A DNA stretch of 64,000 nucleotides, from positions 97,154,001 to 97,218,000 of the forward strand of contig NC_135890.1 of NCBI RefSeq assembly GCF_964194155.1, in the 5' to 3' direction. The position numbers were made by a program, and so were the translations under genes. The DNA comes from Cetorhinus maximus (Eukaryota). The notes beneath the pieces were generated by a model, which did no database searches, was not told the DNA's origin, and worked only from the letters and a program-made list of their open reading frames with translations. Below, piece by piece: positions 3,606 to 49,545 of the stretch (positions are counted from its first letter, which is position 1; each line of letters begins with the position of its first letter).

Positions 3606-3799
3606 GCAACTGACTGAACTTTTCTGGATCCAACTTTTTAGTCGTCTTTCAGGTTTATTTTCTTTAGTGAGTGAAATCCTGCCGTGGATGGTTTTTCGTC
3701 AGTGCCAAGCCCTCTAAACTCATTAATTTACTTGCATTGGGTTCCGCAAATAATTCTGTATCTATCCTGTAATAGAGGCCTCACCCAAGTCAAGTCAAG

Positions 3800-4610: not shown

Positions 4611-5124
4611 CACAACTTGAAAAATCTTGAAAGTCAAATGCTATTTTTGCTTTATTCGTTAAAACCACAGTTTGGTGTTCATAGTTAATGACCTATGCAG
4701 TTTTTAAAAAAAAAAATTCAATATTCTATCCTGGTCTGTTGTCTTAAGCATTGCCATGTAATATGTAGTGCACATTCTGGCGGCTTCTACCCAATCTGAC
4801 TTAAAACAATCAGTGCTGAACTCCGTTTGCAACCTCGGCTCTGCCCGTTGACTTAGTTGGTCCAGATCCCTTTTGTATTAATGCCACAAACAGCATTCCT
4901 CATGACTGCAGTCCACGAGAACACTCATCAGGTACAATTTTCATCAAATCTTTTCAAATTCCTTGTATGGTAATAGTAGAGTCGTCTGAGTGCTTATTTA
5001 AGCTCAAACAGCTGTTTCCCTTTTATACATGCTGAAAAAAAAATCCCTCTATAAACAAACATTGCTCTGGCAACTGAACTGCCATCAATAAAGCAACCCA
5101 AACTGGTCAATTAAAATTATCTTT

Positions 5125-6062
5125 TTAATTCATTTATGGGATGTGGGCATCGCTGGTTAGGTAGCACTTATTGCCCATCCCTAATTGCCCTTGAGAAGGT
5201 GATGAGCTTGAACTGCTGTAGTCCGTGTGGTGTGGGTACATATGTTAGGGAGGGAGATCCAGGATTTTGACCCAGCGACAGTGAAGGAACGGTGAGGTAT
5301 TTCCAAGTCAGGATGGTGATTGGCTTGGAGGGGAACTTCCAGTTGGTGGTGTTCCCATGTGTCTGCTGCTCTTGTCCTTCTAGGTGGTAGTAGTCATAGA
5401 TTTGGAAAGTGCTGCCTAAGAAGCCTTGGTGAGTTCCAACAGTGCATCTTGTAGATGGCACTCGCTGCTGCCACTGTGCATTGGTGATGGAAGGAGTGAA
5501 TGTTTGTGCATGGGGTGCCAATCAAGCAGGTTGCTATGTCCTGAATGGTGTCAAGCTTCTTGTGTTGTCAGGCAAGTGGAGAGTGTTCCATCACTCTCCT
5601 GACTTGTGCCCTGTAGATGGTGGACAGGCTTTGGGGAGCGGGGAGGTTGAGTTACTCGCCGCAGGATTCCTAGCCTCTGACCTGCTCTTGTAGCTGCCCA
5701 GTTCAGTTTCTGGTCAATGGTAACCCCCAGGATGTTGATATTGAAGGCTTAAGCGATGGTAATGCCATTGAATGTCATGGGGCAATGGTTAGATTCTCTC
5801 TTGTTGGGGATGGTCATTGTCTGGCACTTGTGTGATGCAAATGTTACTTGCCACTTGGCAGCCCAAGCCTGGATATTGTCCAGGTCTTGCTGAATTTGGA
5901 CATGGGCTGCTTCAGTACTTGAGGATTTTAGAATGGTGCTGACTATTGTGCAATCATTGGTGAACATCCCCATTTCTGACTTTATGATGGAAGGAACGTC
6001 ATTGATGAGGCAGCTGAAGATGGTTGGGTCTGAGACACTACCCTGAGGAATCCCTACAGATG
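5125..6062 (-). mobile_element. 5'-truncated copy of the same LINE family, frameshifted
   Basis: ORF 5749-6069 GIPQGSV..PTIFSCLIND...FTNDCT (RT core); 3' end matches 4300-4610. Confidence 0.85.
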
Positions 6063-6659
6063 TAACCAATTTTTAAAATAATTTTGTACTTTGCCCCTGC
6101 TATGATAAGGACGTTACTATATTATCTCAATTTGGAATAAATCTACCACATCTTTTTTAACTTGTATTTAATAGCTTATTCTAAACTGTTAATATGCCTG
6201 TATTTGTGTTTGTGCCTTGGGCAGACTATAAAGAAAACTGTGAGCCCATTGATGCTGTATTTGTCTGGTGGATTACCTTGGCCTTTGGGCTGACGGTCAA
6301 AAAAAAATAGTTTTTATTAAAAAAATAGTTAGGTCCCTCGTGTTTGATATGCTTCTGTGTCCTTATGGTAGAACTGACTTCACAACATTATAAAGACTTA
6401 CTTTATTTATAAACTGTACAAGAATAATGTGCACTTAAAAGTTTTTCCATTATTAGCACTTATATAAGTGGAAGATCCTGTTTGGAAGGAAGGCAGAACG
6501 GATCCTGCTCTTAAATTTAAATGTATGTATATATCACCACCGCCCCCCACCCCCATGTAATTATGCACTCTTGCTTTGTCTTGGGAAATATCCTTCATTC
6601 CTTTCTCCTGACCTAAATGGCAGATTTAACGTGTGAATCATACAATATTATTTTTCCTG

Positions 6660-8225
6660 TTCTTTCATGGGATGTGGGCATTGCTGGCAAGGCCACTATT
6701 TTGTTGCCCATCCCTAATTGCCCTTAAGGAGGTGGTGGTGAGCTGCTACCTTGAACTGGTGCAGGTACACCCATTGTAACGAGGTGTCAGCTGTGGCTCA
6801 GTTCATAGCACCCTCGCCTTTGAATCAGAAGGTTGTGGGTTCATGTCCCACCCCTGGAAACCAAGAACTGTGAATGTACTCAAAAGAGTTACATGTGATC
6901 TGTTGATAACTCGAAAGAGTTACACCCATTGTGCTGCTAGGAAGGGAGCTGCAGGATTTTGATCCAGTGACAGTGAAGGAATGGCAATATATTTCCAAGT
7001 CAGGTTGGCGAGTGGCTTGGATGGGAACTTCCAGGTGGTGGTGTTCCCACACATCTGCTGCCTTTGTCCTTCTAGGTGGTAGAGGTCATAGGATTGGAAG
7101 GTCTTGTTGAAAGAGCCTTGGTGTGTTGCTGCAGCGCATCTTGTAGATGATACACACTGCTGCCACTGTGTGCCGGTCAGGGAGGGGGTGAATGTTGAAG
7201 GTGGATGGGGTGCCAATCAAGTGGGCTGCTTTGTCCTGGATGGTTTTGAGCTTCTTGATTGTTGTTGGAGCTGCACTCACCCAGGCAAGTGAAGAGTATT
7301 CCATCACACTACTGACTTGTGCCTTGTAAATCGTGGACAGGCTCTGGGGAATCAGGAGGTGAGTTTCTTGTAGCAGAATTCCCAGCCTCTGACCTGCTCT
7401 TGTAGCCACAGTATTTATATGGCTAGCCCAGTTCAGCTCCTGGTCAATGATAGCCCCCAGGATGTTGATAGTGGGGGATTCAATGATGGTAATGCCATTG
7501 ACTGTCAAGGGGAGATGGTTGTATTCTCTCTTGTTGGGGATGGTCATTGACTGGCATTTGTGTGCCATGAATGTTACTTGCCATTTATCAGCCCAAACCT
7601 GAATGTTGTCCAGGTCTTGCTGCAAATGGGCACAGACTGCTTCAGTTTCTGAGGAATCATGGATGGTGCTGAACATTGTGCAATCATCAGTGAACACCCC
7701 CACTTCTGACCTTATGATGGAGGGTAGGTCATTGATGAAGCAGCTGAAGACCCTACCCTGAGGAACTCTTGCAGTGATGTCTGGGGCTAAGATGGTTGAC
7801 CTCCTACAACCCAACCATCTTCCTTTGTGCTGGATATGACTTCAACCAGCGAGAGAGTTTTCCCCCAATTCCCATTGACTTCAGTTTTGCTAGGGTTCTT
7901 TGATGCTACGCTTGGTCAGATGCTGCCTTGATGTCAAGGGCAGTCACTCTTACCTCACCTCTGGAGTTCAGCTCTTTAGTCCATGTTTGGATCAAGGGGT
8001 GAGAAGCTGAGTGACCCTGGCAGAACCCAAATTAAGCATCAGTGAGCAGGTTATTGCTGTGTAGTATCTGCTTGGTAGTACTGCTGATGACCCTTTCCAT
8101 CACTTTGCTGATAATTGAGAGTAGCCTGATCGGGCAGTGATTGGCGAGGTTGGATTTCTCCTGCTTTTTATGGACAGGACATACCTGGGTATTTTCCACA
8201 TTGCCAGGTACATGTCACTGTTGCA
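6660..8225 (-). mobile_element. Third copy of the same LINE family, interrupted by a short insertion
   Basis: ORF 7086-7814 VPQG..FINDLP..FTDDCT..YKAQVSSVMEYS. Confidence 0.85.
6778..6920 (+). mobile_element. 143-bp tRNA-head (SINE-like) insertion with 12-bp TSD
   Basis: A-box-like gtggctcagttcatag and B-box-like ggttcatgtccc; TACACCCATTGT at 6766-6777 and 6921-6932. Confidence 0.7.
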
Positions 8226-22873: not shown

Positions 22874-23020
<147 letters not shown>

Positions 23021-23384
23021 TAGCACATTGAAGGCATGCTTACTTTTCAAAGGATTAAGCAGTTTTATTGTATAATGTGACCCCTTGTCTGTAAATTCAA
23101 CTGCTGACAGTAAATTTCCTTTGCTAACAGTTTTTTGTATCAATTTGTTTTCGCCTTTTTATGAAGTTAATTGTCGATGTTCCAGTGAGCAGGGTTTAAT
23201 ACTTAACAGAGCTGTGGGAATAAAAACCCAGTAGTACCAGCACCTGAAATGAATCCCTACCAGTTCCTAATGTTGTGTGTGATGTTCCAGATGGATGTTG
23301 GATCCGTATGCTGAACTGTTATTGTATTTTGCAAACTAAATACCCTGTACTCTGCCAAGACTCAGAACCAACTGAGCATATTTC

Positions 23385-24660
23385 ATAGAATCATATAATG
23401 ATTACAGCACAGATGGAGACCATTCAGTCCATCATGCCCATGCTGACTCTCTGCAAGAGCAGTTTAGCTAGTTCCACTCCCCATCCTTTTCCCCACAGCC
23501 CAGCACATGGCTTTCCCTCAGGTGCTTGGCTCATTCCCTTTTAAAAAGCAACAATTGAATCTATCTCCAATACTTTTTCAGGCAGTGTATTCCAGATTAT
23601 AACTACTCGTTGCATTTTTTTTTTAAAAAAAGGTTTTCCTTAGGTTCTTATGCCAATCATTTTAAGTCTGTTATCTCTGGTTCTCGACCCCTCTGTCAAT
23701 GAGAGCAGTTAGACTCTATCTAGTCAGTGTAGACCCCTCATGATTTTGAACTCCTCTATCATATCTCCCCTCAACCTTTTCTCTATGGAGAACAACCCCA
23801 GCTTCTCCAGTCAATCCATGCCATTGAAGTCCTTCATCTCTGGAGTCATTCTCTTAATTACTTTTCTGCAACCCCTCTAAACGATGACATAAGAAATGGG
23901 AGCCAGTAGTAGGCCATTTGGCCCCTCAAACCTGCTCTGCCGTTCAGTAAGATTGTGGCCTTAAATCCACTTGGCTCCGCTATGTAGATCAAAAATCTTC
24001 ACATCCTTCCTAAAATGTGCTCAGAATTTGGACACTGCTTCAGTTGAGGCCAAACTATTGTTTTATAAAGGTTCATCATAACTTCCTTTCTTTTGTTCTC
24101 TATGCCTCTGTTAATAAAGCCCAGGATATTGTATGCATTATTATTAACACCACCTCTGCATGTCCTGCTACCTTCAATGATTGTGCATGTGCACCTCCAG
24201 GTCTGTCTGTTCCTGTCCCTTTTATTCCATGGGCTTCAACATTGCTGACAAGCCTATCATGTGACACTTTACCAAAAGCTCTTTGACAGTCCATATACAT
24301 CAAATTAACTGCTTTGCCCTCATCAACCCTCTCTGTTACCTCATTAAAAAACTTAAGTTAAATAGGATTTGCCTTTAACAAAGCCATGCTGGCTTTCCTT
24401 AATTAATCTACATTTCTCCAATTTCATTTCTAAAAGCTTTACCACCAATGAAGTTAAACTGACTTGCCTGTAGTTGCTGGCTTATCCTTGCACCTCTTTA
24501 GATAAAGGTTTAACAGTTGTGATTCTCAAGTCCTCTGGAAACACCCCCTTTCCTGTGGCCATTGCCTCTGCAATTTTTACCTTCCCTCAGCTTTCGCTGA
24601 TGCTTCCAATCCCGTCCTGGTGACTTATCAACTTTCAAGTACAGCTAACCTTTTCAGATC
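23385..24660 (-). mobile_element. Degenerate CR1 fragments, with a nested CR1 3' tip near 23888-23990
   Basis: YMDCQRAFGKVSHDRL (ORF 24100-24303); catagaatcata tail. Confidence 0.75.
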
Positions 24661-25738: not shown

Positions 25739-25891
<153 letters not shown>

Positions 25892-27021
25892 TAGTAAAGT
25901 TAACTTCAGAATAAGCTACGCCTTCAGGCTGACACAATCCGATTAGAACCCTCATCTCCATTTCAATTATGTATATTTTTAAAGCCAGTTTCACCCCACA
26001 ATTATCAAATCAATGGTTAGAATGAAGTTCTCTCATTAGATGGCTAGTGACATTTTATTCCCAGTGCAATGTAATTTTGAATAGAACTTTAACTACCCTC
26101 AACTTCAGATATACTTTTAAAAGACTTGGACAGATCAAATTTGTTTGAAATTCCCTAATAGTATTTTTGACCCCTTCCCTGCCTTGATAGATAGAAATCA
26201 TTGGCACACAGTAGTTCCAATACTGTTGCACTCAATGTTGCCATTTAAACGTACAAAGTGAAAACCACTCAGTAGTAAAGAGGGTAGCTCTTAATTTCTT
26301 GGCATTAGTCCCCATTGTCTTGGCTCAGGGACTTTACTCTGTAGGATTGACCTGCTGCCATAATCTTCTGGACAGTATTCAAATCCAATTGAATATTAAC
26401 ATTTTTAATATTTTGACATTTTTGTTGCATGTATAGTACTGAGATTTGTGTAAGTGCCACTTTTAGAAGGGAGAAGGGGAATGAAAGTTTGGTTTTCTTT
26501 TCAATTACTAACTCTACAACTGAAAAACTTAAAAATTGCTTTCTTAAGCTGTCCTTATAGTATCGCCAGCGACTAATGCATAGGTCTTGCCTAGCCAGTG
26601 GCAACACCAAAATGAAACTGTTGGATTTAGCAACTGGAGAAACCTTTTAATTTTTTGAACAGAGGAGTTTTCCCATTTGCAGCCCTTTTGTTTTATTAAT
26701 TTTGCCAAAGGAAATACTAATTTATGATCCCACTGATTCCTTGCTGATGGATAATACAAATTTTGTTCCTGGTTTTTGATATGGTGGTGTGTTATGTTAT
26801 AACTGTGTGGATTGGGTACAGGTTTGAACCTTCACTTGATTTTGATCTGAGTTTGTTTGCTTTCTTAGTGGACGCCAGTTGAGTGTGAAATGAATGTCCC
26901 TGTCTTTATGCAATATTATACACACAGATTTGTTCAATGTTTTCTATTAAGAGTATAACAGATCTTAAGTAGGTGAAGCCAATAGCATTTTCTTCCTTTA
27001 CAGTAACAGACTGTACATAAT

Positions 27022-27503
27022 GGGCTGGAGTTGCAGTGGGAACCATAGCGGCCGGGCTGACTTAATCATGGGACAAGCCCTGCAGCAGTGNNNNNNNNNN
27101 NNNNNNNNNNNNNNNNNNNNNNNNNNNNNNNNNNNNNNNNNNNNNNNNNNNNNNNNNNNNNNNNNNNNNNNNNNNNNNNNNNNNNNNNNNNNNNNNNNNN
27201 NNNNNNNNNNNNNNNNNNNNNNNNNNNNGATTAAGTCATAGGATGGAAGGGACTGACATGGAATTCCCTGCAGGATGTCAGTTAGGCTCATTGATGAGCC
27301 TCCCATAACTTACTGGCGGCTCAGGGATTAAGTGGAAGTCGTATGGGTCCCTGCGCCCCGGAAGGTCCCACAGCAAAACCTGTGGGATTTGCTAGCAGCC
27401 TTCTGCAGTTGTCAGTGTCGGTGGGGAGTTCTATCAGGCACTCTGTGCCCGTTCAAGGGACCTGGCATGGAGCAGGGGTGTGGCTGCTGAAAGCCCCAGC
27501 CCC
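27022..27503. mobile_element. MITE-like element in intron 7, spanning an assembly gap
   Basis: Ends GGGCTGG / CCAGCCC; same insertion point as the MITE in the retrocopy. Confidence 0.5.
27091..27228. other. Assembly gap (138 N)
   Basis: Run of N. Confidence 0.99.
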
Positions 27504-27908
27504 CTTAAGGCAACATAAAGCTGCAACATTTATAACATTGTTACCATTTATTCCTGGGATTGTTGGCCTTTCTGTGCTTTCCTGCTCACTGGTGACAGAT
27601 CATTCAGTCTACACAGAACTCTACAAGCTGGAAGACTAACGTCTCCATGTCCCCGGGTAAAATCCAAATCTGAGACTGTGTTTTAAGTTTAACCGTAGCT
27701 GTCCAACATTTGCCATACAAAATCAGGCAGACTAAAGGAGAGGCAGAGACAAGTCCATCTGTTTGAGCTTTTAATTGTCGTGCATATTCGCCTTCCTAGC
27801 CTTTTAAATAGTACCTTTACACAATTCTAACTACTAAGTAATTTTATGGTCACATGATGCCTAGCAGTATCAGTCCTTCTGCTCTGAATTCTAAACAGTT
27901 GATACACT

Positions 27909-28665
27909 AGAAATGTGAAGTGATTCATTTTGGTAAGAAGAACATGAGAGACGATATAAAATTCAGGGTCCAACTCTGAAGGGGGTTCAGGAGCAGAAGA
28001 TCCTGGGTGTATATGTGCATAAATCATTGAAGGTGGTAGGGCAGATTGAGAGAGTGGCTAATAAAGCATACAGTATCTCGGGGTTTATTAATAGGACGCT
28101 AGACTACAAGAGCAAGGAGGTTATGTTGAACTTGTATAAGGCACTAGTTCAGCCTCAGCTGGAGCATTGGGTTCAGTTCCAGGCACTGCACTTTAGGAAA
28201 GATGTGAAGGCACTGGTGGGAGCACAGAAAAAAATCATGAGAATGGTTCCAGGGAGCAGGAACTTCGGTTATGAAGATAGATTGGAGAAGTTAGGACTCT
28301 CTTCCTGGGATGAGAGAAGATTTGTTAGAGGTATTCCAAATCATGGACAGAGTAGATGGGGAGAAACTGTTCCCAGTTGTGAAAGGATTGCAAATGAGAG
28401 GGCATGGATTTAAGGTAATTTGCCAAAAGAAGCAAAAGCAACATGAGGAAAAACTTTTTCATGGAGCATGCCTGAGTGTGGTGGAGGCAGGATCAATTGA
28501 GGCATTCAAAAGGAAATTAGACTGTTATCTGAAAAGGAAGAATGTGGAGGGTTATGGGGCGAAGGTGGGGGGAATGGCACTAGGTGAATTGCTCGTTCGG
28601 AGAGCTGGTGCAGACGCGATGGGCCGAATAAGCTCCTCCTGTGGTGTAACAGTTCTATGATTCTG
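27909..28665 (+). mobile_element. 5'-truncated CR1 LINE in intron 7, sense to the gene
   Basis: ORFs 28015-28413 (YKSKEVMLNLYKALVQPQLE) and 28310-28660; TTCTATGATTCT tail. Confidence 0.88.
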
Positions 28666-30012: not shown

Positions 30013-30561
<549 letters not shown>

Positions 30562-31481
30562 TGATCAACAAAGAGCAGAAAATTGTCTCAATACTGTTGA
30601 CCTCTTTAATGGCTTGGAGGAGTGAGAGAAAGGGATTGTTCAGCTTGGAGCATGGGAGACTTTTCATTTCTCTGCTGAAGCAGTACTTTCTTTCCTGCGT
30701 AATACTTGCCCCAGTCATCTTGTGGTAATTGACCTCCGATTAGCAGTGTACATGAGAATTGTGTGACAGCCTCTGGAGAATTTAATTTAAATGACATCAC
30801 TCAAATGAGTAAAATCAATGACGAGATCTATTTTAAATGTTTATCAAACTTAATTATCTGTTGTATGATTGAGCTTTTATATTAGAAACAGCTTTAGTTG
30901 GCTTTTATCTACACACTGCAGTGTGCTCGCATATATAGTTTGTATGGATTAATTTATACATATTTGCATGCAAATTGTAGCGCATTGCCAAATTAGTTGG
31001 TGGTGACTAAGAACTTGAATTTTTTTTAAAAGCTATTCTTGCTTCTGTTAGTTAGGCAAGATTTTAGCTTGTGACCCACGTTGAAACCTTTGGAAGAGTT
31101 TAAATGAGTTCTATATATTTGTCCTTCATGTCTTCTTCAGCTTGTAGGATGTGTGCAAGATTTATGTGTGCTGTCAGACATTCAAAATTGGCTGCTAAAA
31201 CAACCTGATTGTTTGCCTCATGGGCTAAAAATGGACTCCTCCGGGAGTACAATTTCTCTACACCAGTGTGGTGTAAAGAATCTCTTGACCTAGACAGTAA
31301 GATTCTCACAGCATTCTCTGATCTCATGAGGCACTTACAAAGTCTGTGTATGTATTAAATTAAATTGAGCTTCATGTGCTGTACCTCAATTTTTTAAAAG
31401 CTATTTCCAGACAAAGACTTTGTGCATGTAGCAACAAACCTAAATTCTGATCTGATATTCTTGCACAATCAGCAGTACCCT

Positions 31482-31535
31482 AAGATGAAAGCAAAATACT
31501 GCGGATGCTGGAAGTCTGAAACAAAAACAGAAAAA
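31482..31535. mobile_element. 54-bp terminal fragment of the Penelope-like family
   Basis: Resembles the reverse complement of 14095-14148; TSD CAGTACCCT at 31473-31481 and 31536-31544. Confidence 0.75.
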
Positions 31536-31695
31536 CAGTACCCTGTTGTGTAATGGAAGCTTTGTTCATGTGTCAGACAATCCCCTTGTCTGAAACATGA
31601 GTTTATATCTTGCTATCCACTTTGATTTGCATTGATCAGCAGCTGATGTGCTATTCTTCACCTAGACTGTCTACTACTTTGTGTCATTTCCATAG

Positions 31696-31785
<90 letters not shown>

Positions 31786-33259
31786 TAAGTACATGTATTC
31801 ATTCTTTTTCAAACCTTTTTCAACCTACATTTGCAGTGCTTCATTTAAAAGTATGGGCCGATTGTCTGTGCACTGTAATCTATATTCCTTTTTTGGGCCA
31901 TGTGTAAAACGCATGTAATATATATCTTACTTCCCAAAAAAATTGCTTCCACTGCAATTCACTTGTCTGATTTACTCTTTTTGCCCCTATACACCAAGAT
32001 CATCAGACATAAAAGCAGCAAAAATTTATTTTTTTTTTTAGAATGTATTGACATCTGGCACTGGGGAAGAATGACCACAATTGCACAATGCAATTACTGC
32101 TAACCTGGTGCCTCATTCTTCAGGGGAGGGTGAAGAGAAGGGAGTGAAAACTATTTTTGCTGTTCCTTCCAAGGTGGGGGACATTGTGGGTGTCTCAGAT
32201 AACCAATAACAACACAATTTGTTAATGCAAATAGAGACCTAAACAAGAATAGAACATCTCCACTGGTGAGCTTTCCAGTGGAAGGTAACAGAAATGGCAG
32301 GATTAGGACATGACCAGATATTTTTGTTATAGTCATACAAATATCTGTGAACTGCTTTCTCCCTGATTTGCTCTCTGTCCTGCCTCCTGACTGTAGAATC
32401 CAAAAGCGCCTCTTTTTGGGCTGTACCTTTCAACAAATTTAAATGTATTCATTGCCCAATCAAAAAGCCAAAGAGAGGAGAGTGTTGTATTTCATCCATC
32501 CATATCCATTGGACCTTGGCTTCAACCAAATTTCATCAGTGCACATGCAGCAATCAAATGCTTTTCAGGCTCGTGTATATGCATCCAGGAATATGAAAAT
32601 GTAGATTCCAAATTTCAGTGTGTCCTTTTTGAAATCTCACACTTCTTGTAGCAGTTAACTTTAATCCAGAAAGATGATTAATTTTGTGCATTTGGCCTCT
32701 AGTCAGTGAATTAAAATTTAGTTATCTTTCTATTGACTCTTGTCATTGATCTGGAAACAACTGTAATTGACATTCATCTTATCAAAGATCTCATGTAAAA
32801 CATTAGCAAAGTATTTGGAGCCACCTCTAGACTTCTGTCAAATTTTGATAGCTATACTCTGGACTATGCTACAATATCAAGATTAAGCCACCCATCTTTG
32901 GAACAGCAACCTTGGATATTTGGAAGGGAACAAATTGCAAATATGTGAAGTCACTAAATTTATAATTCAGGGTATCTTCTTCCTGCATATTTACCTTTTC
33001 ACTTTAATCTTGTCTCATAAGAGTATTTTGTGTTGGATTTTTGCTGGCTTACGCGATTGGAAAATGTTCAAGAATAAACAACAACTTTAATATAAGGTTG
33101 TATGTCAATATTCTTGTCAAGTAAAATCTTACAGCTATCTAAGCAAAGGAAAACGATCATGAAATGAGGATGCTGTAATTTTCACCTCTTTCCCCACTCT
33201 TCTCTTTTCCCCCCCAAACCCCCGTTCCAACCTCCAAGTGAAATATATAAATGAAAGAA

Positions 33260-33680
33260 AGAACTTGCGTTTATACAGTGCATTTCACAACCTCAGGACA
33301 TCCCAAAGCAACCAATGAAGTACTTGGTGTAGCCTTTACTGTTATGCAGGGAAACATAGTGGGTAGTTTGCACCACAGCAAGGTCTCACAGACAGCAAAG
33401 AAATGATGCCAAGATGACTTTTTATTAAAATATGATTTTAGTTCAGAGATACATAGAACACCAGGTGATCATTCTTGCTCAAGTAGTACCGTGCGATCCT
33501 TAACATCCACTGGAGAAGTCAGGCAAGACCTTGGTGTAGTATTGCATCTGGAGGCTGGGACTTCTGTTTGTACAGTCCCTCCATCCTGCGCTGAAATGTT
33601 AGTCTATCTTGTGCTCAAGTCTCTGCAGTGGGGATTGAATCCACAAGCTTCTGACTCAAGACCGTGAATGCCATGGCTGC
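33260..33680 (-). mobile_element. tRNA-derived SINE with L2-like tail, degenerate
   Basis: Reverse complement resembles 15779-16185; tail tttcacaacctcaggacatcccaaagc. Confidence 0.6.
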
Positions 33681-34856
33681 TGATATGGTGCAGGAAGAGG
33701 AAATTGAAAGTAATTTGTGCCCTTGCAATAGAAAAAGTATCCCAAATCGCCTAGCAGCTGCCTGTGGGATTTTATTACCATTGTTATTATTCAGAAGCAG
33801 AATATTTAAGAGCTGACAGGTAGATCTTTCTTTGCATAACTTTTCCAGAATGTCCTAATGTGTTGAGCAATGAGGTGCCCTTATTTTCCTTTTCTGTATT
33901 GTATTAGTGTTTTTTTTAATTAATTGGCCATTTGAAACTTATTTGACTGAACTTTCTATTTCAGTGGTGTTAAATGATATTTTCAAAAATGAAAAATTAA
34001 ATATTGGCTGTGTTCAATCCCTGCTTTCTTAGAATGCCTTGTCATGTTAAAATAAGTTTGAATGAAATAATTCTGGTAATGTGAACTTTATTAGCCATTG
34101 CCAATGCAGATGTTATCTACACTTTACACACCTAGAGCAGTAACTTTTTAGTGGTCAATGAGGGGAACATGGCTAGAAAGGAACATGCATTATTGGTAGT
34201 TGCAGCTTGAAGAGTTTCAGTTTTTAACAGCTGGTGTTACACATTGAGCTTTACTGTGATCAGTGTAATTCTAGCTTTTAAAAATAATATTGTCAGTAAA
34301 AAAAAAAAATTAGTGTTTTGGAATTCAAGTTCCAGGTTTCTGCACGACCTCTGGCTTAAGTGTATGTGCATGTGTTTGAACTCTTGCCATCAATAACATG
34401 AGAGTGGTGCAATCAAGGCAGTGTAACCACAGCTGCCCAGTCACACTGCTGCCAAAAGTGCCTGATGTTGCACCGAATGATCTCGGATAACTGGGGCATA
34501 TATTGCATATCATTGACTAGAGTGGGTGTGACTGCTACCTTCAGCAGCGCTGCAGTTTAAGTACCTATATTGCAGTGCTTGTATTTAATTCCTGTTTCAG
34601 AAGCTGAAATAGAAATGTTAACCCAACTCAGCACACCAGTGAGATCTTATCCAGCTGCATTAGAGGTGATACTGTAACAGAATCCCACAACAGGAATAAT
34701 GGCTTGCAAATCGCAAATAGTTTTTTAAAATTAAATTCAAATTTATGAAACTTGAGCCTGGCCTGAGGCAACTGTCACTAGGACTGCTCTACCCCTCTAC
34801 AAGAAATTCCTCGATTCAATAGAATATTCTGACCTAGAAATTCGAGTTAAGTTTAA

Positions 34857-34976
<120 letters not shown>

Positions 34977-35826
34977 TGAATCAAATATATTATTGCTTAT
35001 CAGTTTCCCATTACTCTGTATATGGGAGCCAAGACCAGGTACATGTCAAACAGGGCTCAAAGATTGGAGCTGGAGGAGGAGGAAAATGGAACTGGGAGAG
35101 AGAGCCAATGCAAGAAGAGGATGGGTTGTGGGGAAGAGGAAAATTAAAAGGAAGAATTCAATGGTGGAGGAGAGGGGACATCAGGACACAGGGAAGGGTG
35201 GGTGGCCATTACTTAATGGCTGGGGGGAGCTGTACTGGGTCAGATTCTGTTTTAGGGAGAGCCGGAGAAAGGTGATTTTTTTTTCTGGGAGGGAATTGCA
35301 GAGAGCAGGTTAGTGTTTTATTTAGAGCAAAAGTTCATATTCTATGCCTAGTTCACAATTTTGAAGCACATATAAGGTAAATGCAAACTGAATGGTGTAT
35401 CTGCTATGACTCAGTGTGTGCAAAGATGATGACATCTCACAAATCTGAAGTAAATTTTAAAATAAAGAAAGAAAATGGATGTGACATAGTGAAGATTTCC
35501 TCCCTTCAAAAGTCTGGCAAAACATTTAAGAGAAGCCTGTTCCCAGTGAATACTTGTGTATTCTAATGTTGTGGTCCGTGTGTGTCTCTTTGATAATTGT
35601 GATTGAGCACTAAATCTCACTTAAATTAAAACATTTCTCCGCTAAATTGGAACACGTTGTGCTGTACTATAATTTAAATTTCTAATACACCTTTGGTTTT
35701 GACCTTCTGAGAACTCGTCGCAACTTGTTACATTAACTATAGGAGAAGTACCCTAGTTGCCATGTGTCGTGATGTCAGAAGTTATTCAAATAATGTGTTT
35801 CTGGTGTCGACGCTAATAAATTTTAA

Positions 35827-35979
<153 letters not shown>

Positions 35980-36006
35980 TAAACTCTGAAGCATTGCTTT
36001 TATTAA

Positions 36007-36474
<468 letters not shown>

Positions 36475-36590
36475 TGAATTGGTTTGCAGAAGCAAATCCA
36501 TTATCAGGGTACAGACTGCCAAAGTACCATAGAAAGTGGTGGGGTCAATGTATAAAGATACTGTAACTATGTTTTGGTTTGTTTCAATAG

Positions 36591-36836
<246 letters not shown>

Positions 36837-38679
36837 TAATACGCTGATGTAAACTTTACACAGGTAACTACTGTTTTAAAAAGTAAATGCTGTCCGGTTT
36901 ATATAATGGCATGGCAGTCAAATGTTTCCTAGTTAGAACATAAGGCAGAGTCATCTTCGTAACACAGACAGATTCTCTCACGTTATTTTCAAGCATTTAA
37001 TAGAGTGTCTGTTCCAGGCATTCCTGAAAGAATTCCAACACCCCTTTTTTTAACAGATGACATTGTGCTATTTGTAGCCTCATCTGAGAATCTAATGTGC
37101 TTCACTAACTAAATGGAATAGTTGGCTAGCCAGTGAGATATGATTGTTGGTGTCTATGGATTTACACAACTCTGGTTTAGATCTCAAAGGTATGATTGGG
37201 AGATGTAATGGACAGCTGTCCTATTTGCATTGAATTGGTACCTGGCAGTTTTGTTGGATGTCAACTTTAGCCTGAACACAAGTCTTTGGAGCCACTCTGG
37301 TAAGGGTCTAGGGCACTTAGCAATTATTGAAGAAAGATGAGAAAAACCAAAGTCCAAAAACAGATTATGCTTGTAAAAGCAATAATGTCCCAGCAATTCT
37401 CCATGGCTCAGATTTCCCAGCCACACAACAGACAAGCTCTTTGGCCCAAGGACCAAACTGTGTGATAAGTTTGCAGCGAGAAAGGGAACTGATATGTGGA
37501 GGAAGGGCTTGGCTGACTGGCCTGTCATTGAGTATCCCAGAGGGGAAGTCAACCTTGCAGTCAGCACAAAACTTCAGTAAAATATTTGGTGATGGGTCCT
37601 TGGGTTTGGATACTTAGAATATCCAGGTGACGTGACATCTTGTTTAAAAAGCAGTCATCCACAACTTTTAAAAGTAGGTGTTGATTATATAACTGATCAG
37701 GAAAGTCTTGAGAATTTATTACAACAAATAGATTGTGTTATCTGGTGGCTGATTATGAAGAAACTTACTTGTGTAGCCAAGGCTTAATGGCTACCATGAT
37801 TGAGTTACAAAGTGAAAAACAGGTACTGCTAAAACTTCATACTTCCACCTAGCGGAACCACCATCCACTATGCCAGGGTGTGTATTTATTGTTGTGGCCA
37901 GGAGGATAATGGTGGTATATGCGTACGTTTTATGGTAAGTTATGTGGCTCACTGTACCACCTCTTTAAGGAACACCTGATGTTTTATGCCGACTTGGCAA
38001 AATCTCATCTACACTTTTCAAATGTCTGATCACAAACTATCCTCCTTGGGTGGATGGAAGGGAAAAGTAAACAGTCCCTTTGAGGTTAAGATGATTCCAT
38101 GGTGATGTGCCGAGCAATAAAGTTGAAACTGAGGTGTGCCCTTCAAGCTAGGCAGACCTGCAATTCTTGATGATTAAAGATCCATCATTTGGGGCTGGGA
38201 CTCTTCCCATTCAGTTGTAGGTAGCAGTACAAAACAATCAGTTAAAACATTTTGAATGGTTGTTGATCTATTTTATGACGTTGACTTCATATGTCCACCA
38301 TTATTTCCTCAAACACTTTTCAAATCATCACATTGATATTAGTATTTGAGTGGTCCTTACTAGATAAGCATTGGACCACTTAACAGTACCCCATTCTTGT
38401 AAATTGTCTAGTCTTGGTTACTTAGATTCCAGGACTACGGCTCACATTTAGGGGTTCCAAATGCTTGGCTTTTGCCAACCTGTCTAAGCTCTCTGGATCT
38501 GCAATAATGTGATATCATGCTATTGAGAAGCAAAGTATAATCCATATTGAGCAATTAGGATTTCTACCTGTATAGCTTTCTTTGTTTGGTTTGAGTATGG
38601 TGATGGGTTTCTATGTATGCCAGATATCTCCCACCAGATAAACATTGGTGGATTTCACCACAGTGATGAGAAGTTTTTT

Positions 38680-38998
38680 TTTTGTTCATGGGATGTGGGT
38701 GTCGCTAGCATTCATTGCCCATCCCTAATTGCCCTTGTTCAGAGGGCATTTAAGAGTCAACCACATTGTTGTGGGTCTGGAGTCACATGTAGGCTAGACC
38801 AGGTAAAGGTGGCAGATTTCTTTCCATTAGTGAACCAGGTGGGTTTTTATGTTTCGTGGTCATCATTAGACTTTTTATTCCAGATTTTTATTGGATTCAA
38901 ATTCCACCATCTGCTGCAGTGCCTGGGTCCCCAGAGCATTACCCTGGGTCTTTGGAATACCAGTCGAGTGACGATACAACTACGCCACTGCCTCCCTC
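38680..38998 (-). mobile_element. tRNA-derived SINE sharing its 3' tail with the Zenon-like LINE
   Basis: Head gggaggcagtggcgtagttgtat (A-box-like); tail gggcaattagggatgggcaat..cccacatcccatgaac-polyA. Confidence 0.65.
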
Positions 38999-39879
38999 CC
39001 TCAAGTATTTGAGCAAAATGGTGTACAGTACATACAGTTTTACCTGTAGTAAATTGCTATCTGCTGATGTGTCTGTCAGGCTGGAACTGTTCCATTGTAA
39101 CTTTTGAACCTTTCTTTGCTCTTGTTACTTTGTAAAACTCATTCAGTGAGACAAATCTTTCAAACAGATTTGAAACGTTTAACTTAGAGGTAATTAAGCC
39201 CATTTGTATCTAATAAATGTATTTCAGTTGATACAAAATTACACCATATTGATCATAGAGTCATAGAATAGTTAGCACAGAAAGAGGCCATGTGGCCTTT
39301 TGTGTTTGCACCTGCTCTCTGTAAGAACTAGTCAGCTGGCCCCACTCCCCCATGTTTTTACCATGTCACAAAATTGATCATTTCATACTTGGCCATATTA
39401 TGTTAACTGATTTTGGCAAAGGAAGTAATTAAAGCAGGGCAACTAATTGGGAACTGTAGTTGCCCTCTGCTTGGCAGGAGAAAATTCATGTACTGCTGAT
39501 TGGTAAGTCCAACTCAAAAAGCCAGCTGACATGCATAAACAGCCAACACTCATCAAACCACATCCTCACAAGACAGGAAGGTAAAAGGGAATAATTATAT
39601 TTACCACTTAAGACCTCTTTGTGATTTTTATTTAATGGTGTAGTGATAGGGTGCTACCCAATAAAGCAAGCCCTGTCAGACAAGTTCACAAAGGCCTCTG
39701 CATTAAGCTAGGATTTTGGGCTAGAAAGAGTTTGGGAATCCAATTGGCCTCAATGTGCCTGCAATAGTAGTTCAAAGTATATTTATAAAAATATCCCCTT
39801 AGTTTGAGCATCATAAAATGCCTAATGTATTAGTATATAGTATTGGTAATTTTTGGAGAATTGTCACAATGTTTTGTAA

Positions 39880-40905
<1,026 letters not shown>

Positions 40906-41288
40906 GGGTTAATGTTTTCCTTGTAGGCAAACAGCTTAAAGGGAACTACCTTCATGGGTAGGAGAATGAATTTTACACAAGTTTCCCTGACTGGCCACAA
41001 TTGACATTTTCCCCATCGAACTACAAGTTGTTATCGTGAAAATGAAGTATTGCTCTTCCTCTATCCCTTAAATAGGCTTTGCCGAACATTTTCATGAAGA
41101 CTGTCCCTTTAACGCAAAGCAGCTTTCATCACAATAATGCATTTGTACACTAAGTTTAATGTATAAGATGTGTTAGCTGTTGCAGATTGATGTATCAATG
41201 TGTTGATATTATTAGATCATGGGCTCCCTGATGATTCAGCTCGTTAGAGTGTGTTTGAACTACAAAGGCCAGGGAGGATCCTTGGTCT

Positions 41289-44200
41289 AAAGAACAAAGA
41301 AAAGTACAGCACAGGAACAGGCCCTTCGGCCCTCCAAGCCTGCACTGATCATATTGCCCATCAACTAAAACATTTTGCACTTCCGGGGTCTGTATCCCTC
41401 TATTCCCATCCTATTCACGTATTTGTCAAGCTGCCTCTTAAACACCACTATCGTACCTGCTTCCACCGCCTCCTCTGGCAGCGAATTCCAGACACTTACT
41501 ACCCTCTGCGTAAAAAACTTGCCCCGCACATTTCCTCTATAGTTTTCTCCTCTCATCTTAAATATATGTCCCCTAGTAATTGACTCTTCCACCCTGGGAA
41601 AAAGCTTCTGACTATCTACTCTGTCCATGCCACTCATAATTTTGTAAACTTCTATCAATTCGCCCTTCAATCTCTGTCGCTCTAGTGAGAACAATCTGAG
41701 TTTCTCCAACCTCTCCTCATAGCTAATAACCTCCAGACCAGGCAGCATCCTGGTAAACCTCCTCTGCACCCTCTCCAACGCCTCCATATCCTTCTGGTAA
41801 TGTGGCGACCAGAATTGCACGCAATATTCCAAGTGTGGCCTAACCAAGGTTCTATACAGCTGCAGCATGATTTCCCAGCTTTTATACTCAATACCCCTGC
41901 CAATGAAGGCAAGCATGCCATATGTCTTCCTGACTACCTTATCCACCTGTGTTGCCACTTTCAGTGACCTGTGGACCTGTACACCCAGATCCCTCTGCCC
42001 TTCAATGCACTTAAGGGTTCTGCCATTTACTGTATAATTCCTGCCTGTATTAGACCTTCCAAAATGCATTACCTTGCATTTGTCCGAATTAAACTCCATC
42101 TGCTATTTCTCCGCCCAAGTCTCCAACCAATCTATATCCCGTTGTATCCTTTGACAATCCTCTTCACTATCTGCAACTCCTCCAACCTTAGTGTCGTCTG
42201 CAAACTTACTAATTAGCCCAGTTACATTTTCCTCCAAATCATTTATGTATACTACAAACAGCAAAGGTCCCAGCACTGATCCCTGCGGAACTCCACTAGT
42301 CACAGCTCTCCATTCAGAAAAGCACCCTTCCACTGCTACCCTCTGTCTTCTATGACCAAGCCAATTCTGTATCCATCTTGCCAGCTCACCTCTGATCCCG
42401 TGCAACTTTACCTTCTGTTCCAGTCTGCCTTGAGGGACCTTGTCAAAGGTCTTACTGAAATCCATGTATATAACATCCACTGCCCTTCCATTGTCGATCA
42501 TCTTTGTCACTTCCTCGAAAAATTCGATCAAGTTAGTGAGATACGACCTCCCCTTCACAAAACCATGCTGCCTCTCACTAATACGCCCATTTGCTTCCAA
42601 ATGGTAGTAAACCCTGTCACGAAGAATCTTCTCCAATAATAACCCTACCACTGACGTAAGGCTCACCGGCCTGTAATTTCCTGGATTATCCCTGCTACCC
42701 TTCTTAAACAATCGAACAACATTGGCCATTCTCCAGTCCTCTGGGACCTCACCTGTAGCCAGTGAGGATACAAAGATTTCTGTCAAGGCCCCAGCAATCT
42801 CCTCCCTTGCCTCCCTCAGTACTCTGGGGTAGATCCCATCTAGCCCTGGGGACTTATCCACCTTAATGTTCTTCAAGACGCCTAGCACCTCTTTTTTGAT
42901 CTCAACATGATCCAGGCTATCTATACACTCTTCCCTAGACAAATCGACTGCTAAGTCCTTCTCTTTGGTGAATACTGATGAGAAGTATTCATTTAGTATC
43001 TCTCCCATTTCTTCTGGCTCCACACACAGATTCCCACCTCTGTCCCTGAATGGGCCTACCCTTTCCCTGGCTACCCTCTTGCTTTTTACATATGTATTAA
43101 AGGCCTTGAGATTTTCCTTAATCCTGGTTGCCAGTGACTTTTCATGACCCCTTTTAGCCCTCCTGACTCCTTGCTTAAGTTTCTTCCTACTTTCTTTATA
43201 TTCTCCACGGGCTTCATCTGTTCCCAGCCTTCTAGCCCTTACGAATGCTTCCCTTTTCTTTTTGACTAATCTCACAATATCCTTCATTATCCAAGGTTCC
43301 TGAAACTTGCCATGCTTATCCTTCATCCTAGCAGGAACATGCCGGTCCTGAATTCTTATCAACTGACGTTTGAAAGCCCCCCACATGTCAGTTGTTGATT
43401 TGCCCTCAAACATCCGCCTCCAGTCTAGATTCCTCAGATCCTGCCTAATATTGTTATAATTAGCCTTCCCCCAATTAAGCACCTTAACCCGAGGACTCCT
43501 GTTATCCTTATCCACCAGTACCTTGAAACTTACTGAATTATGGTCACTTTTCCCAAAATGCTCCCCTACTGAAACTTCGACCACCTGGCTGGGTTCATTC
43601 CCTAATACCAGGTCCAGTATTGCCCCTTCCCTAGTTGGACTATCTACGTATTGTCTCAGGAAGCCCTCCTGCATGCACCTTACAAATTCTGCACCATCCA
43701 AACCCCTAGCACTAAGTGATTCCCAGTCAATATAGGGAAAGTTAAAATCACCCACCACAACAACCCTATTGCTTTTACATCTTTCCAAAATCTGCCTACA
43801 TAACTGTTCTTCAATCTCCCGCCGGCAATTAGGAGGCCTATAGTAAACTCCCAACATTGTGACTGCACCCTTCCTATTCCAGAGCTCTACCCATATTGCC
43901 TCGCTGCATGAGCCCACCGAGGTGTCCTCCTGTCGTACAGCTGTGATATTCCCCTTAACCAGCGGTACAACTCCCCCACCTCTTCTACATCCCTCTCTAT
44001 CCTGCCTGAAACATCTAAATCCTGGAATGTTTATCTGCCAATCCTGTCCATCCTTCAACCAAATCTCTGTAATAGCAATAACATCATGGTCCCAAGTACT
44101 AATCCAAGCTCTAAGCTCATCTGCCTTGCCTGTTATACTTCTCGCATTGAAACAAATGCATTTCAGACCCCCAGTCCCACTGTGTTCAGTAATTTCTCAC

Positions 44201-45510
44201 TGCCTGCCCTTCCTCTTAGTCCTACTGGCCATATTCACTGGTTCCCAGTCATTTATTTCATCTGCTGACCTATTGCTCTGGTTCCCACCCCCCTGCCATA
44301 CTAGTTTAAACCATCCCGAGTGACACTAGCAAACATCGCAGCCAGGATATTGGTGCCCCTCCAGTTTAGATGCAACCCGTCCTTCTTGTACAGGTCCCAC
44401 CTGCCCCAGAAGAGATCCCAATGATCCAGATATCGGAAATCCTCCCTCCTACACCATTGTTCAGCCACGTGTTTAGCTGCATTATCCTCCTATTTCTAGC
44501 CTCACTGGCACGTGGCACAGGGAGTAATCCTGAGATTACAACCTTAGCGGTCTTGTTTTTTAACTTTCTGCCTAACTCCCTGAACTCCCGCTGCAGGACC
44601 TCGTCACTCTTCCTGCCTATGTCGTTAGTACCAATGTGTACCACGACCTCTGGCTGTTCTCCCTCCCCCTTCAGAGTGTCCCGTACCCGATCAGAGACAT
44701 CCTGGACCCTGGCACCAGGGAGGCAACATACCATCCTGGTGTCTCTTTCACGACCACAGAAGCGCCTATCTGAGCCCCTGACTATAGGGTCCCCTATGAC
44801 AATTGCTCTTCTGTGCTTTGACCACCCCTGCTGAACAACAGAGCCAGCCGTGGTGCCACTGCTCTGGCTACTGCTGTTGTTTTCCTCTGATAGGCCATCC
44901 CCCCCAACAGTATCCAAAACGGTATACCTGTCAGAGAGGGGGACAGCCACAGGGGATTTCTGCACTGACTGCCTGCCCCTTCTAGCGGTCACCCATCTAT
45001 CTGTCTCTACCTTGGGTGTGACCACGTCTCCAAAACTCCTGTCAATGACGCTTTCCGCCACCTGAATGCTCCTAAGTGCATCCAACTGCTGCTCCAACCG
45101 ATCCGGTCTGTGAGGAGCTGCAATTGGGTACACTTCCTGCAGAAGTTGTCCAGGACACTTGAAGCGTCACAGATTTCTCACATCCCACAGGTGAAGCACT
45201 TCACCCAGCAACTGCCATTTCTAGAACTATTTAATAAATTAATTTAAATCTAATAAACTGCTTATTGACTCCTTATTAACTATACGTTCCCTAGGGCTAG
45301 ATTTCTACTATAAATGCTAAATTCTAAGAACAGTAATCCTCTGATTCTGGTCTAGATACCCTCTACTTATTAATTAAGTGATTAATTTATTTGGTTTAAT
45401 TAGTTTAACAATGTTTTAGTTTTAAATTCAGTGTAGATTCTCTACCAACGGTCCACGAATCCCCGAGGTAAGGTTTTTATACTCACCTCTCTGGAACTCT
45501 GCCTTCCGAC
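41289..45510 (-). mobile_element. Near full-length CR1 LINE (ORF1 SGNH esterase; ORF2 APE endonuclease + RT), inserted into an older SINE
   Basis: ORF1 IGDPIVRG..LPGARV..HIGTND; ORF2 [39 protein letters not shown]; in-frame TAG at 42103-42105; TSD TGGTCT at 41283-41288 and 45511-45516. Confidence 0.93.
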
Positions 45511-47170
45511 TGGTCTGTGTATGGTGAACATGTCACAGCAAGGGTGCTGCAGTTGGCCTCGGTGCCATGAGATTAGCGAAGGGAAATTTGGCTAAAATCC
45601 CCATTCCTGATCTCTAAGCAGTGATTCCTGATTTTTAGATGTTGGGAGAAGGCAACATTGGGCTCAATTCTGAAGCCCACTTGGTAAAATAACAAGCACT
45701 CGCAATCTAGATTCAAATCTTCAAAAGAAAATTTTTAGGGTGAATTACTTGTTGCATTTCAAGTAATTGTTCTTTTAATGGTATTTCATTATGCTACTTT
45801 TCCATGTTAAAGCCTATCAATTATTTTCATACTTTAGAATTATTTGTCGAGCGCAGTAAATGCCTGTTTTAGAAATTATTTTCTCTGTTCATAAAATCTT
45901 CAGTTGCTATTAGAGGGTTGTGGAAGTTGTAACTGTTGCAACCTGGTAGTGTTTAATTGTGATTGAAATATCAAGTTACTGATGAAAAAGCTGACACCAA
46001 AATTAAAGTACATGAAAAATAGTGCAGCTGGTCACTAAAACAATATCTTGTACCAAATGCTGAAAAATGTAATATATTGCTGCATTAGCTTCCTAGAACA
46101 TTAGTTTTGGGACACTGGTCACAGAAATAACTCCTTACTCAGGCACTAAGGTGTAAATTAGGCATTCCATCGAAAGGAGAGAGAACACTTGAGCACAAGT
46201 TTGACATGCCCATCCCTGTGCCTCCCACACCTTGATTATCGACTGCTTAACTTCTGGCTGCTAGTCTCCTGAGGTTGATTCTAAACTTGCTGCCATGGTG
46301 TTAAACTAGTGTTATAGATTGGTTATCCATTATAAAAACCATCCAATTTTAATTTATATTGTTTTTCAGTATTATCCAGTCTAACAGCAGTAAAATTAAA
46401 TCTGCCTGATGTTTCTTAACATCCTGTTGTATATATCTAATACAAATGGTGAAGAAAGAAACTTGAGAGTTACCTCTGTCCAAATTACTTTCTTGTCCTT
46501 GCCCACCTCCTTTTGTCCTTCTATAAGTTACATGTGCGTTTCCGAAGAGAAGGCGTAAATAATAATACTGGGCAAGTTGGACATTTGAGAGGAAGAGATT
46601 TTTGTAACCATGACACCTATCTTAAAGGGCCAAAGCCACTTCACGCCAAAAGATATTCCTCTAGCGCATATACCCTTCAGAGACACACTAATTACCACTG
46701 ATCAATTTCCAGCCACAATGAATAACATTTGGTCAGGGGCACACTTACAATTGATTGACCTTTGACTGCTGCTGACTTGTGCTTTTTCAAAGAATGTTGT
46801 AATAAAACTAGGTTAAAATTAAGCGATCAGATTTATTATACATTGGTATAAAATGCTTCACTTGTTAGAGAATTGTTTACATTGTCATAAAGAATCTACG
46901 GCCTAACTGATATTAAGGCAATAATGTGTGATTTTTTTTTTCTCCTATATCCTGTTTGCTCAGATATTTAGCCCCATTTTGGCCTTTGAAGTACTTAGAC
47001 CTGATTGGAAGCTGCCTTCAAGTAATCAACCATATATGTCTTTTGGGTGCTTCCTTGAAATTTTCAAACAGTGAACATTGTTTAGTATTGCAAAAAATAA
47101 TTTTCCTGAATTTGACCATTTTCATATACCAAGTATGGTTTTCATCTGGTATGTTTTTTTTTATCTTTAG

Positions 47171-47392
<222 letters not shown>

Positions 47393-48099: not shown

Positions 48100-49545
48100 A
48101 GCGAAGCAGCCCTTGTCAAATCACAAATACCATCCTATACGGCTGATGGTGGCAAACTATCCTTCCTACCCTTCTCTGCCTGTCTGTAACTTTAGACATG
48201 ATTGACCACACTATCCTCCACTGACAGCTTTCTACTGTTGCCCAGCTGGATGGGGCTGCACTCACCTGGTTCCATCCTTATTTACCAGTCACAGCCAGAG
48301 AATCACCTTAAATTACTTCTCTTCCCCTCTTCCCCCAATAATTAACATCTCATTGGGGACCCACTTACTTACAATTGATTGACCTTTGACTGCTGCTGAC
48401 TTGTGCTTTTTAAAAAAAAATGTTGTTATAAACCTAGGTTAAAATTCAGTGATCAGGTTTATTATGCATTGGTATAAAACCCTTCACTTGTTAGAGAATT
48501 GTTTATGTTGTCATAAAGAGTCTCTGGTCTAACTGAAATGAAGGCAATAATGCATGATTTATTTTGATATCCTGGCCGCTCAGATATTTTGCCCCATTTT
48601 GGCCTTTGGAACACCATTACCTCTGGTGTTCCCCAAGGTTTTCCCCCCTCATTATTCTTTATCTACCTGTTGCCTCTCAGCAACATCATCTGAAAATGCT
48701 GTCAGTTTTCTATATGTATGCTGATGATACACAGTTAACTTCCACCCTCAACCCCCTTTACTGTCTCTAATTTGTCCAACATCCGGCACTGGATGAGCAA
48801 AATTTTTCTGCAACTAAATATTGGGAAGACTGAAGCCATTATCTTTGATTGATGCCACAAACTCCACTCCCTAGCCACCGTTCCATTCTCCTCCCAGGCA
48901 ACTGTCTGCAGCTGAACCAGACTGTCCACAGCCTTGGTGTTATATGTGACCCTGACTTGGGCTTCCATGCCCGTGCCAATCTTAAGACCATCTGCTTCCA
49001 CCTCCATAACTTCATTAAACTCCACCCCTGCGTCAGCTCATTTGCTACTGAAACTCTTCTTGTCTTTGTTACCTCTAGACTTTACTATTCCAACACATAC
49101 CAAGTTGGCCTCCTATCTTCCGCCATCTCCAATCTTGGGGTCGTGCAAAACTTTTGCTACCCATGTCCTAACTCGCACTGAGTTCCGGTTGCTTGTCACC
49201 CCTGCATTGACCTACCTTGACTCTTGGTTAAAGAATTAAAAGCCTTATCTTTGTTTTCAGATCCCTCTATGACCTCTCCTTCCTATCTTTGTAACTTCCT
49301 CTAGCCCTTCAACCCTCAGATATCTGCAAACCTCCACTTCTGGCCTCAGCATCCCGATTTTAATCACTGCACCCAAGCTCTGGAATTCTTTCCCTAAACC
49401 TCGTCGCATTGCTATTTCTCTTTCTTCCTTTAGGACACTCCTTGAAACCTGACTCTTTGACCAAGCTTTTGGTCATCTGTTCTACTAAATCCTAATGTAA
49501 CTTAGTGTCAAAATTTGTTTGATAACATGCTGTGAAGTGCCTTGT
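48100..49545 (+). mobile_element. Degenerate L2 LINE (RT region to 3' end), interrupted by a 270-bp local duplication
   Basis: TSGVPQG, YADDTQL, LQLNIGKTEAI and VTSRLYYSN remnants. Confidence 0.8.
48340..48610 (+). repeat. Direct copy of intron 14 sequence 46720-46990
   Basis: Long identical runs, e.g. acttacaattgattgacctttgactgctgctgacttgtgcttttt and cagatattt.gccccattttggcctttg. Confidence 0.9.

Follow-up and report, generated by a model that had tools for sequence, protein, structure and literature searches.

The inverted duplication described here raises the question of why, between two arms that are otherwise old and divergent, a single block of 386 bp has remained nearly identical. The locus lies in a 64,000-nucleotide stretch of the Cetorhinus maximus genome (contig NC_135890.1, positions 97,154,001 to 97,218,000; hereafter the window), and an earlier note made from its sequence had reported three mismatches and no indels between the two copies of the block, which it attributed to gene conversion between the arms or to selection for RNA pairing. 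Direct comparison of 26637-27022 (plus strand, arm A) with the reverse complement of 57948-58333 (minus strand, arm B) bears out that count, with 386 aligned columns, 0 gaps and 3 mismatches (0.8%, 95% interval 0.16-2.3%). The mismatches, at 26852, 26963 and 26964, are all transitions and amount to two events; the perfect runs measure 215, 110 and 58 bp, against a longest run of 51 bp elsewhere in the arms. The greater divergence ascribed to the remainder of the duplication also stands: mismatches occupy 20 of 67 columns at the start of the adjoining MITE-like element, the LINE part is 11-19% diverged, and the exon 7 copy carries the 9 substitutions (in 79 aligned columns) and the 1-nt insertion described previously, although its deletion measures 7 nt and not 6.

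The host gene is ATP2A2 (SERCA2). Thirteen exons with AG/GT borders join into 759 codons that are stop-free when spliced, 754 of the 759 amino acids being identical to those of white shark; identity of the spliced product to seven other named sharks and rays is 93-96%, and the frame at 30040-30504 corresponds to SERCA2 residues 211-365. Exons are here numbered 6-18, following the human gene. Exon 6 (81 nt; 22902-22982, plus strand) has AG/GT borders and an open spliced frame, and the peptide of exon 7 (86 nt; 25770-25855, plus strand) is the same in five of the six named fish proteins compared. Positions 1-22900 contain no convincing match to exons 1-5, so that intron 5 appears to exceed 22.9 kb. 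Arm A (25770-28664) begins with exon 7 and extends 2.8 kb into intron 7; arm B (59630-56231) lies antisense in intron 15. The two enclose exons 8-15 (30040-47391, plus strand; 1691 nt exonic, not a multiple of 3), and are approximately 31 kb apart at the block. Other repeats are present in the region: a direct repeat of approximately 245 bp, 86% identical, flanks exon 15 (46743-46988 and 48367-48608), and two inverted pairs in introns 14 and 15 (40364-40901/52479-53373 and 42229-42303/52032-52106; 69-78%) bracket the same exon. Of tandem repeats, the window contains three short arrays and the arms none.

The composition of arm B (56231-59630, minus strand), i.e. the end of exon 6, exon 7 and the 5' part of intron 7 as far as the tail of a LINE, bears on how the duplication arose. 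Immediately upstream of the exon 7 copy (59615-59536), arm B matches the end of exon 6 at 15 of 15 positions, against 6 of 15 for the end of intron 6; the evidence comprises this one junction, with 15 nt of exon 6 overhang (59616-59630, minus strand, a copy of 22968-22982), and the chance of matching the 13 nt that precede the shared AG is approximately 5e-8. The terminal 15-mer of exon 6 occurs exactly twice in the window, in exon 6 and in arm B, and none of the other 12 exon ends recurs there. The copy is truncated at its 5' end 15 nt into exon 6, the rest of which has no match upstream in arm B (1696 of 2000 shuffles score as high); a tblastn hit at 59713-59540, which would have extended the exon 6 match, was discarded on the same grounds, shuffles scoring as high. 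Of intron 6, nothing but LINE sequence recurs near arm B, whilst intron 7 is retained, and the copy contains 101 nt of exon and is 97% intron. As the precise removal of a single intron points to copying from RNA, arm B is very probably a partly spliced retrocopy of its own gene, and the joined exons 6 and 7 rule out a plain DNA duplication. The duplication is indeed old, as the earlier note had it, but the RNA-derived origin of the copy, indicated by the exon 6/7 junction and by the end at a LINE tail, had been missed. An L1-type processed pseudogene was also rejected, since arm B terminates in the LINE tandem tail and has no 3' poly(A) tail. The ends of arm B show no exact target-site duplication, a single AT-rich 8-mer located 5 nt before and 47 nt after the copy being within chance expectation. 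Coding constraint on the exon 7 copy has been lost, with 8 of its 9 substitutions non-synonymous in addition to the 7-nt deletion and the 1-nt insertion.

The LINE at the end of arm A (27910-28664, plus strand) is 5'-truncated and in sense orientation to ATP2A2; we take it to be CR1-like on the basis of tail and domains. Its tail (approximately 28651-28664) forms the end of arm A and is the putative priming site; the counterpart at the end of arm B occupies 56231-56978 (minus strand), and homology between the arms stops at the tail in both. The open reading frame of the intron 7 fragment matches at 47% (E 1e-34) the C-terminal frame of an element in intron 14 (41.3-45.2 kb; 41305-45166, minus strand), in which three stretches (266, 697 and 245 aa) are free of stops, the 697-aa one carrying endonuclease and reverse transcriptase domains (PF00078, PF03372, PF14529). 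The intron 7 fragment itself, being short, gave no Pfam hit, and a protein search with it found no match among longer proteins, the Atlas matches being unnamed eukaryotic clusters. An octamer tandem tail pattern is found at 28651, 56244 and 9123, with a variant at 23399; this tail type is named in PMC5381603 and, for CR1, in PMC2612034. An antisense CR1-like copy with an internal insertion of approximately 113 nt lies in intron 6 (23384-24215, minus strand), inverted with respect to the intron 7 copy, and the pair brackets exon 7.

Because the copy ends at the tail, and because LINEs of this kind are described as stringent (PMC5470649, PMC3747384, PMC4176376), it is likely that reverse transcription of arm B was primed there by the cognate protein: stringent LINE proteins bind their cognate 3' tail, as described in PMC4176376, and recognition by CR1 of its own RNA sequence limits, on the account in PMC5470649, what CR1 can carry. 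Against this, no significant present-day fold was predicted for the tail region in arm A (z -0.33). The arm B tail (56200-56250, minus strand) seemingly holds one or two extra degenerate repeat units relative to arm A, a weak observation of a kind that slippage at priming might leave. Comparison with a third LINE copy places the two arms closer to one another over 27910-28200 (43 versus 20 and 11 shared states) and somewhat closer over 28451-28664 (32 versus 18 and 20), whilst over 28201-28450 they are no closer mutually than to that copy (21 versus 26 versus 30). Alternatively, intron 15 may already have contained a LINE copy onto which the cDNA was guided by homology.

Two further insertions mark the arms. 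Directly to the right of the block, a rearranged relic of a GC-rich MITE-like element in arm A (27023-27510, plus strand) occupies the same site as an element with short terminal inverted repeats in arm B (57459-57947, minus strand). Two pieces of the relic, each scoring above all of 300 shuffles, align with the arm B element at approximately 30% divergence; relative to that element the relic has approximately 300 nt extra and lacks the 3' part, and the near-equality of the two spans (488 and 489) is coincidental, the matching pieces not being collinear in spacing. The relic is interrupted by the only N-gap in the window (27091-27228, 138 N), which starts 68 bp past the block. Both the divergence and the rearrangement of the MITE parts exceed what the LINE clock would lead one to expect, a discrepancy to which CpG decay, rearrangement or misassembly around the gap could each contribute. 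The approximately 220 nt after the gap (27229-27450) match nothing elsewhere in the window and represent either an insertion in the relic or a misjoin. Intron 15 contains another GC-rich MITE-like element, at 55290-55945, which also has short terminal inverted repeats but is only weakly similar to that of arm B (14 of 300 shuffles). The other insertion, a 424-nt repeat with a 5-bp direct repeat at its ends (58752-59175, minus strand), is restricted to arm B and shares 71-77% identity with the three longest of its relatives in the window, which indicates that arm B is old. At least three copies of the family that inserted in arm B, in both orientations, lie at 3487-7750, with stop-free stretches of 284 and 251 aa, the 284-aa one giving no Pfam hit.

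The age of arm B is best read from its LINE and exon 7 parts. Mismatches per column in successive LINE stretches are 15/138, 31/195, 31/166 and 36/201, the distal parts together diverging by 17.4% (98/562; interval 14-21%; K2P approximately 0.2). The non-synonymous differences of the exon 7 copy fall at residues that are invariant in the sharks compared and must therefore have arisen in arm B, amounting to at least 10% on the arm B lineage alone; doubled, this value fits both the 17.4% of the distal LINE and the 18% of one intronic island (below). We place the age of arm B at about 17-21% divergence. Absolute dating with a pedigree rate of 7e-10 per generation gave implausible ages and was abandoned in favour of relative age.

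Against this age, it is the unique intron parts that are anomalous, with divergences of 0.8-12% that change in steps at inserted elements. Proceeding along intron 7 in arm A (plus strand), divergence from arm B is 11.5% at 25856-26219 (41/355), 5.9% at 26220-26560 (20/340) and 18% (14/76) in the island at 26561-26636 that forms the left border of the block; beyond the block and the MITE relic, it is 6.7% at 27522-27909 (26/386). The 5.9% and 6.7% segments, which would be older conversion tracts, together diverge by 6.3% (46/726; interval 4.7-8.4%), whilst the island would be unconverted sequence. Since both these segments and the block lie below the decay of arm B itself, a frozen arm A alone is insufficient to explain them, and the block would be approximately one-twentieth as old as the copy. 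Change points, located within restricted search ranges, fall at 26617 and 26637 on the left and at 27023 on the right, i.e. the block adjoins a mismatch cluster in the 18% island on one side and ends at the first MITE base on the other. Arm-arm identity also rises across the insertion restricted to arm B, where divergence halves (47/361 versus 22/342, P 0.0035; 19/150 versus 8/150 for 150 columns each side, P 0.04). An imprint of A-to-G editing in arm B was rejected, A/G asymmetry being absent in every segment.

Uniform identity along the arms, which the earlier note had held would count against its reading, is rejected over the five unique intron segments (chi-square 51.8, 4 df, P 1.5e-10) and by permutation: spans of 386 columns with 3 or fewer differences arose in 0 of 200,000 permutations (longest 301), and again in 0 of 200,000 when the two best flanks alone supplied the background. 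Simulations at three uniform rates produced a block-like span in 0 of 20,000 cases, whereas those with extreme regional rate variation (gamma shape 0.5-1, 100-nt blocks) did so in 85 to 6,700 of 20,000; very strong variation of this kind can thus yield such a block without conversion. A patchwork with borders at heterology matches the pattern of recurrent interlocus conversion as described in PMC3924837, according to which conversion renders tracts identical, and TE insertions and large indels interfere with pairing, and repeated gene conversion between the arms is probably the best reading of the data. Of what the earlier note proposed, which as a whole is partly supported, conversion is the part best supported, by the non-uniform identity, the borders at heterology and a divergence too low for the age of the copy; it is read from one sequence pair in one genome.

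Taken as a whole, an account in which a LINE primed a half-spliced retrocopy and the block is the youngest of several conversion tracts appears, on balance, probable. A CR1-like LINE would first have inserted, in sense orientation, into intron 7, and its 3' tail would have been carried by a transcript, either nascent or terminated early, from which intron 6 but not intron 7 had been spliced. The cognate LINE protein would have bound this tail and primed at a nick 28 kb downstream, reverse transcription covering 2.9 kb and breaking off once 15 nt of exon 6 had been copied. Later, the inverted arms would repeatedly have templated each other's repair without crossover, tracts stopping at inserted elements, such that the block would be a neutral footprint of conversion without functional role. 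Since a crossover between the arms would invert exons 8-15 and destroy the gene, non-crossover outcomes alone would be expected to persist.

Near-identity beside a gap also invites the explanation that gap filling, bubble merging or polishing placed arm B, or its other allele, into arm A. The only N-gap of the window is 68 bp from the block, its 138 N suggest a scaffolded short-read assembly, and two events in 386 bp are compatible with an allelic difference, nucleotide diversity being given as 0.002 for another shark in PMC10587355. The 68 bp between block and gap are, however, specific to arm A (20/67 mismatches, 3 gaps), so that the path left the block on arm A sequence and real shared sequence is needed at the end of the block. 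Moreover, the neighbouring segments at 6-7% stayed resolved, the GC-rich element within which the gap lies would be sufficient cause for it, and an artefact leaves unexplained the segments at 6%, which are already below the age of the copy and need homogenisation in any case. Among the rival explanations an assembly artefact is the one to be taken seriously, although we regard it as rather unlikely. Later cDNA copies of the same transcript, recombined into arm B by a route that is RNA-templated and always runs from A to B, could also have renewed identity; the locus has already yielded one such cDNA, and conversion by cDNA is described in PMC5470649. Priming at the tail nevertheless predicts the highest identity next to the tail, where identity is in fact lowest (16-19% divergence), the peak lying 1.6 kb upstream, and such renewal is highly improbable.

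Constraint on both copies of the block, for instance as a retrocopy-carried enhancer acting independently of orientation, would also hold identity above neutral expectation, and many ancient conserved elements are retained in sharks. The borders of the block nevertheless coincide with inserted elements and not with any unit that could be recognised, the block contains neither MEF2 nor CArG sites and is not enriched in E-boxes, and the second copy would need near-freezing at all 386 sites. Rfam returned 0 matches at gathering score across the 64 kb and two weak matches in the region (E 0.74 and 1.6), both outside the block, whose own fold is no better than that of shuffled sequences (z +1.08); a known structured ncRNA in the block was rejected on these results. 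None of the stop-to-stop frames that overlap the block exceeds 113 aa, and coding potential was rejected for want of anything but short frames; no further copy of the block occurs within the window, where a dispersed-repeat reading is without support. Purifying selection on a DNA element is accordingly considered very unlikely. A pyrimidine tract ending in AG, resembling a splice acceptor, lies near the right end of the block at 26989-27004 (plus strand).

The other explanation offered by the earlier note, that selection keeps the arms complementary for a functional pre-mRNA duplex (yielding a circRNA of exons 8-15, skipping to decay, or editing), draws on a suggestive arrangement. Inverted complementarity in the introns flanking exons 8-15 is as expected of reverse complementary matches, which promote back-splicing and skipping in the nematode study PMC8330042. 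The predicted block duplex reaches -686 kcal/mol, against -75 and -59 for the single strands, and two of the three block mismatches would form G-U pairs. The substitutions themselves nevertheless show no excess of G-U-compatible over A-C changes (44:35 in unique sequence, P 0.37; 91:80 overall, P 0.44), and selection for pairing would tolerate approximately 24 wobble changes in the block at the age of the copy, or 8 at the flank rate, where 2 are present (P 2e-8 and 0.01); the distance between the arms at the block also stands against it. Selection for pairing is therefore unsupported, and we consider it highly improbable. As a predicted side effect, the two arms would be able to base-pair within the pre-mRNA and so bracket exons 8-15, which may be a mere by-product; removal of intron 7 may precede transcription of arm B. 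Skipping of exons 8-15 would, by computation, shift the frame and lead to a stop approximately 10 codons into exon 16.

Each component of the proposed history is already known: retrocopies may be only partially processed, stringent LINEs carry RNAs by way of their tail, duplicates undergo conversion, and introns may contain complementary matches. Arm-to-arm conversion is known from Y-chromosome palindromes, with which arms A and B may be compared, and mouse Sry provides another case of a circRNA from reverse complementary matches. Like the partially processed retrocopies described in PMC5470649, arm B combines an exon-exon junction with retention of another intron, 5' truncation and coding decay; unlike them, it lacks poly(A), ends in an intronic LINE tail, is 97% intron and lies 28 kb from its source, in antisense orientation within the parent gene itself. 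As with the SINEs and RNAs carried by stringent LINEs (PMC3747384, PMC4176376), the mobilised RNA ends in a LINE 3' tail, but the passenger here would be a host pre-mRNA reading through an intronic LINE and not a polymerase III SINE. Arm B also resembles a 5' transduction, but one with a spliced host junction and with one copy within the window. The tracts share with interlocus conversion in PMC3924837 a length of a few hundred bp, patchwork, borders at TE insertions or indels and proximity of the copies, and differ in that the partner is an RNA-derived intronic copy and in that eight exons of a conserved gene lie between the inverted arms, so that crossovers would be eliminated. The arms likewise share long inverted complementarity around an exon block with the matches of PMC8330042, but the matching sequence is the gene's own unique intron and exon 7 and not a dispersed repeat, and its substitutions carry no pairing signature.

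A search of open-access papers and bioRxiv, by titles and abstract openings and thus weak as evidence of absence, found no report of this locus or of a half-spliced copy ending in a LINE tail and lying antisense in its own gene. The VGP pipeline, as described in PMC13320880, discards alignments shorter than 120 bp as well as any candidate that lies less than 200 kb from its parent; with 101 nt of exon and a location inside its parent, arm B would be excluded from such a screen by design.

If the block is a neutral conversion tract, it is in itself ordinary, and the retrocopy origin of arm B is of greater interest. Arm B would constitute a fossil of co-transcriptional splicing order, with intron 6 out and intron 7 in, and suggests insertion beside the site of transcription. 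The pair of arms may serve as a natural gauge of inverted-repeat conversion in a slowly evolving lineage, and would at the same time be a standing risk of gene-breaking inversion. One could go further and propose a self-made splicing regulator, in which approximately 2.3 kb of complementarity, renewed by conversion, diverts SERCA2 pre-mRNA to a 1691-nt circle or to a frameshifted, degraded exon 7-16 transcript and so tunes pump dosage in mackerel sharks, with intronic CR1 tails as a general, hitherto overlooked route to local self-retrocopies in genomes thought to be poor in retrocopies; as a model this proposal is speculative, and we consider it unlikely. Nevertheless, whilst CR1-type LINEs are thought, on the account in PMC5470649, to be poor carriers of host RNA because their own 3' end is needed, this locus would show a way round, the host pre-mRNA borrowing the tail of an intronic LINE.
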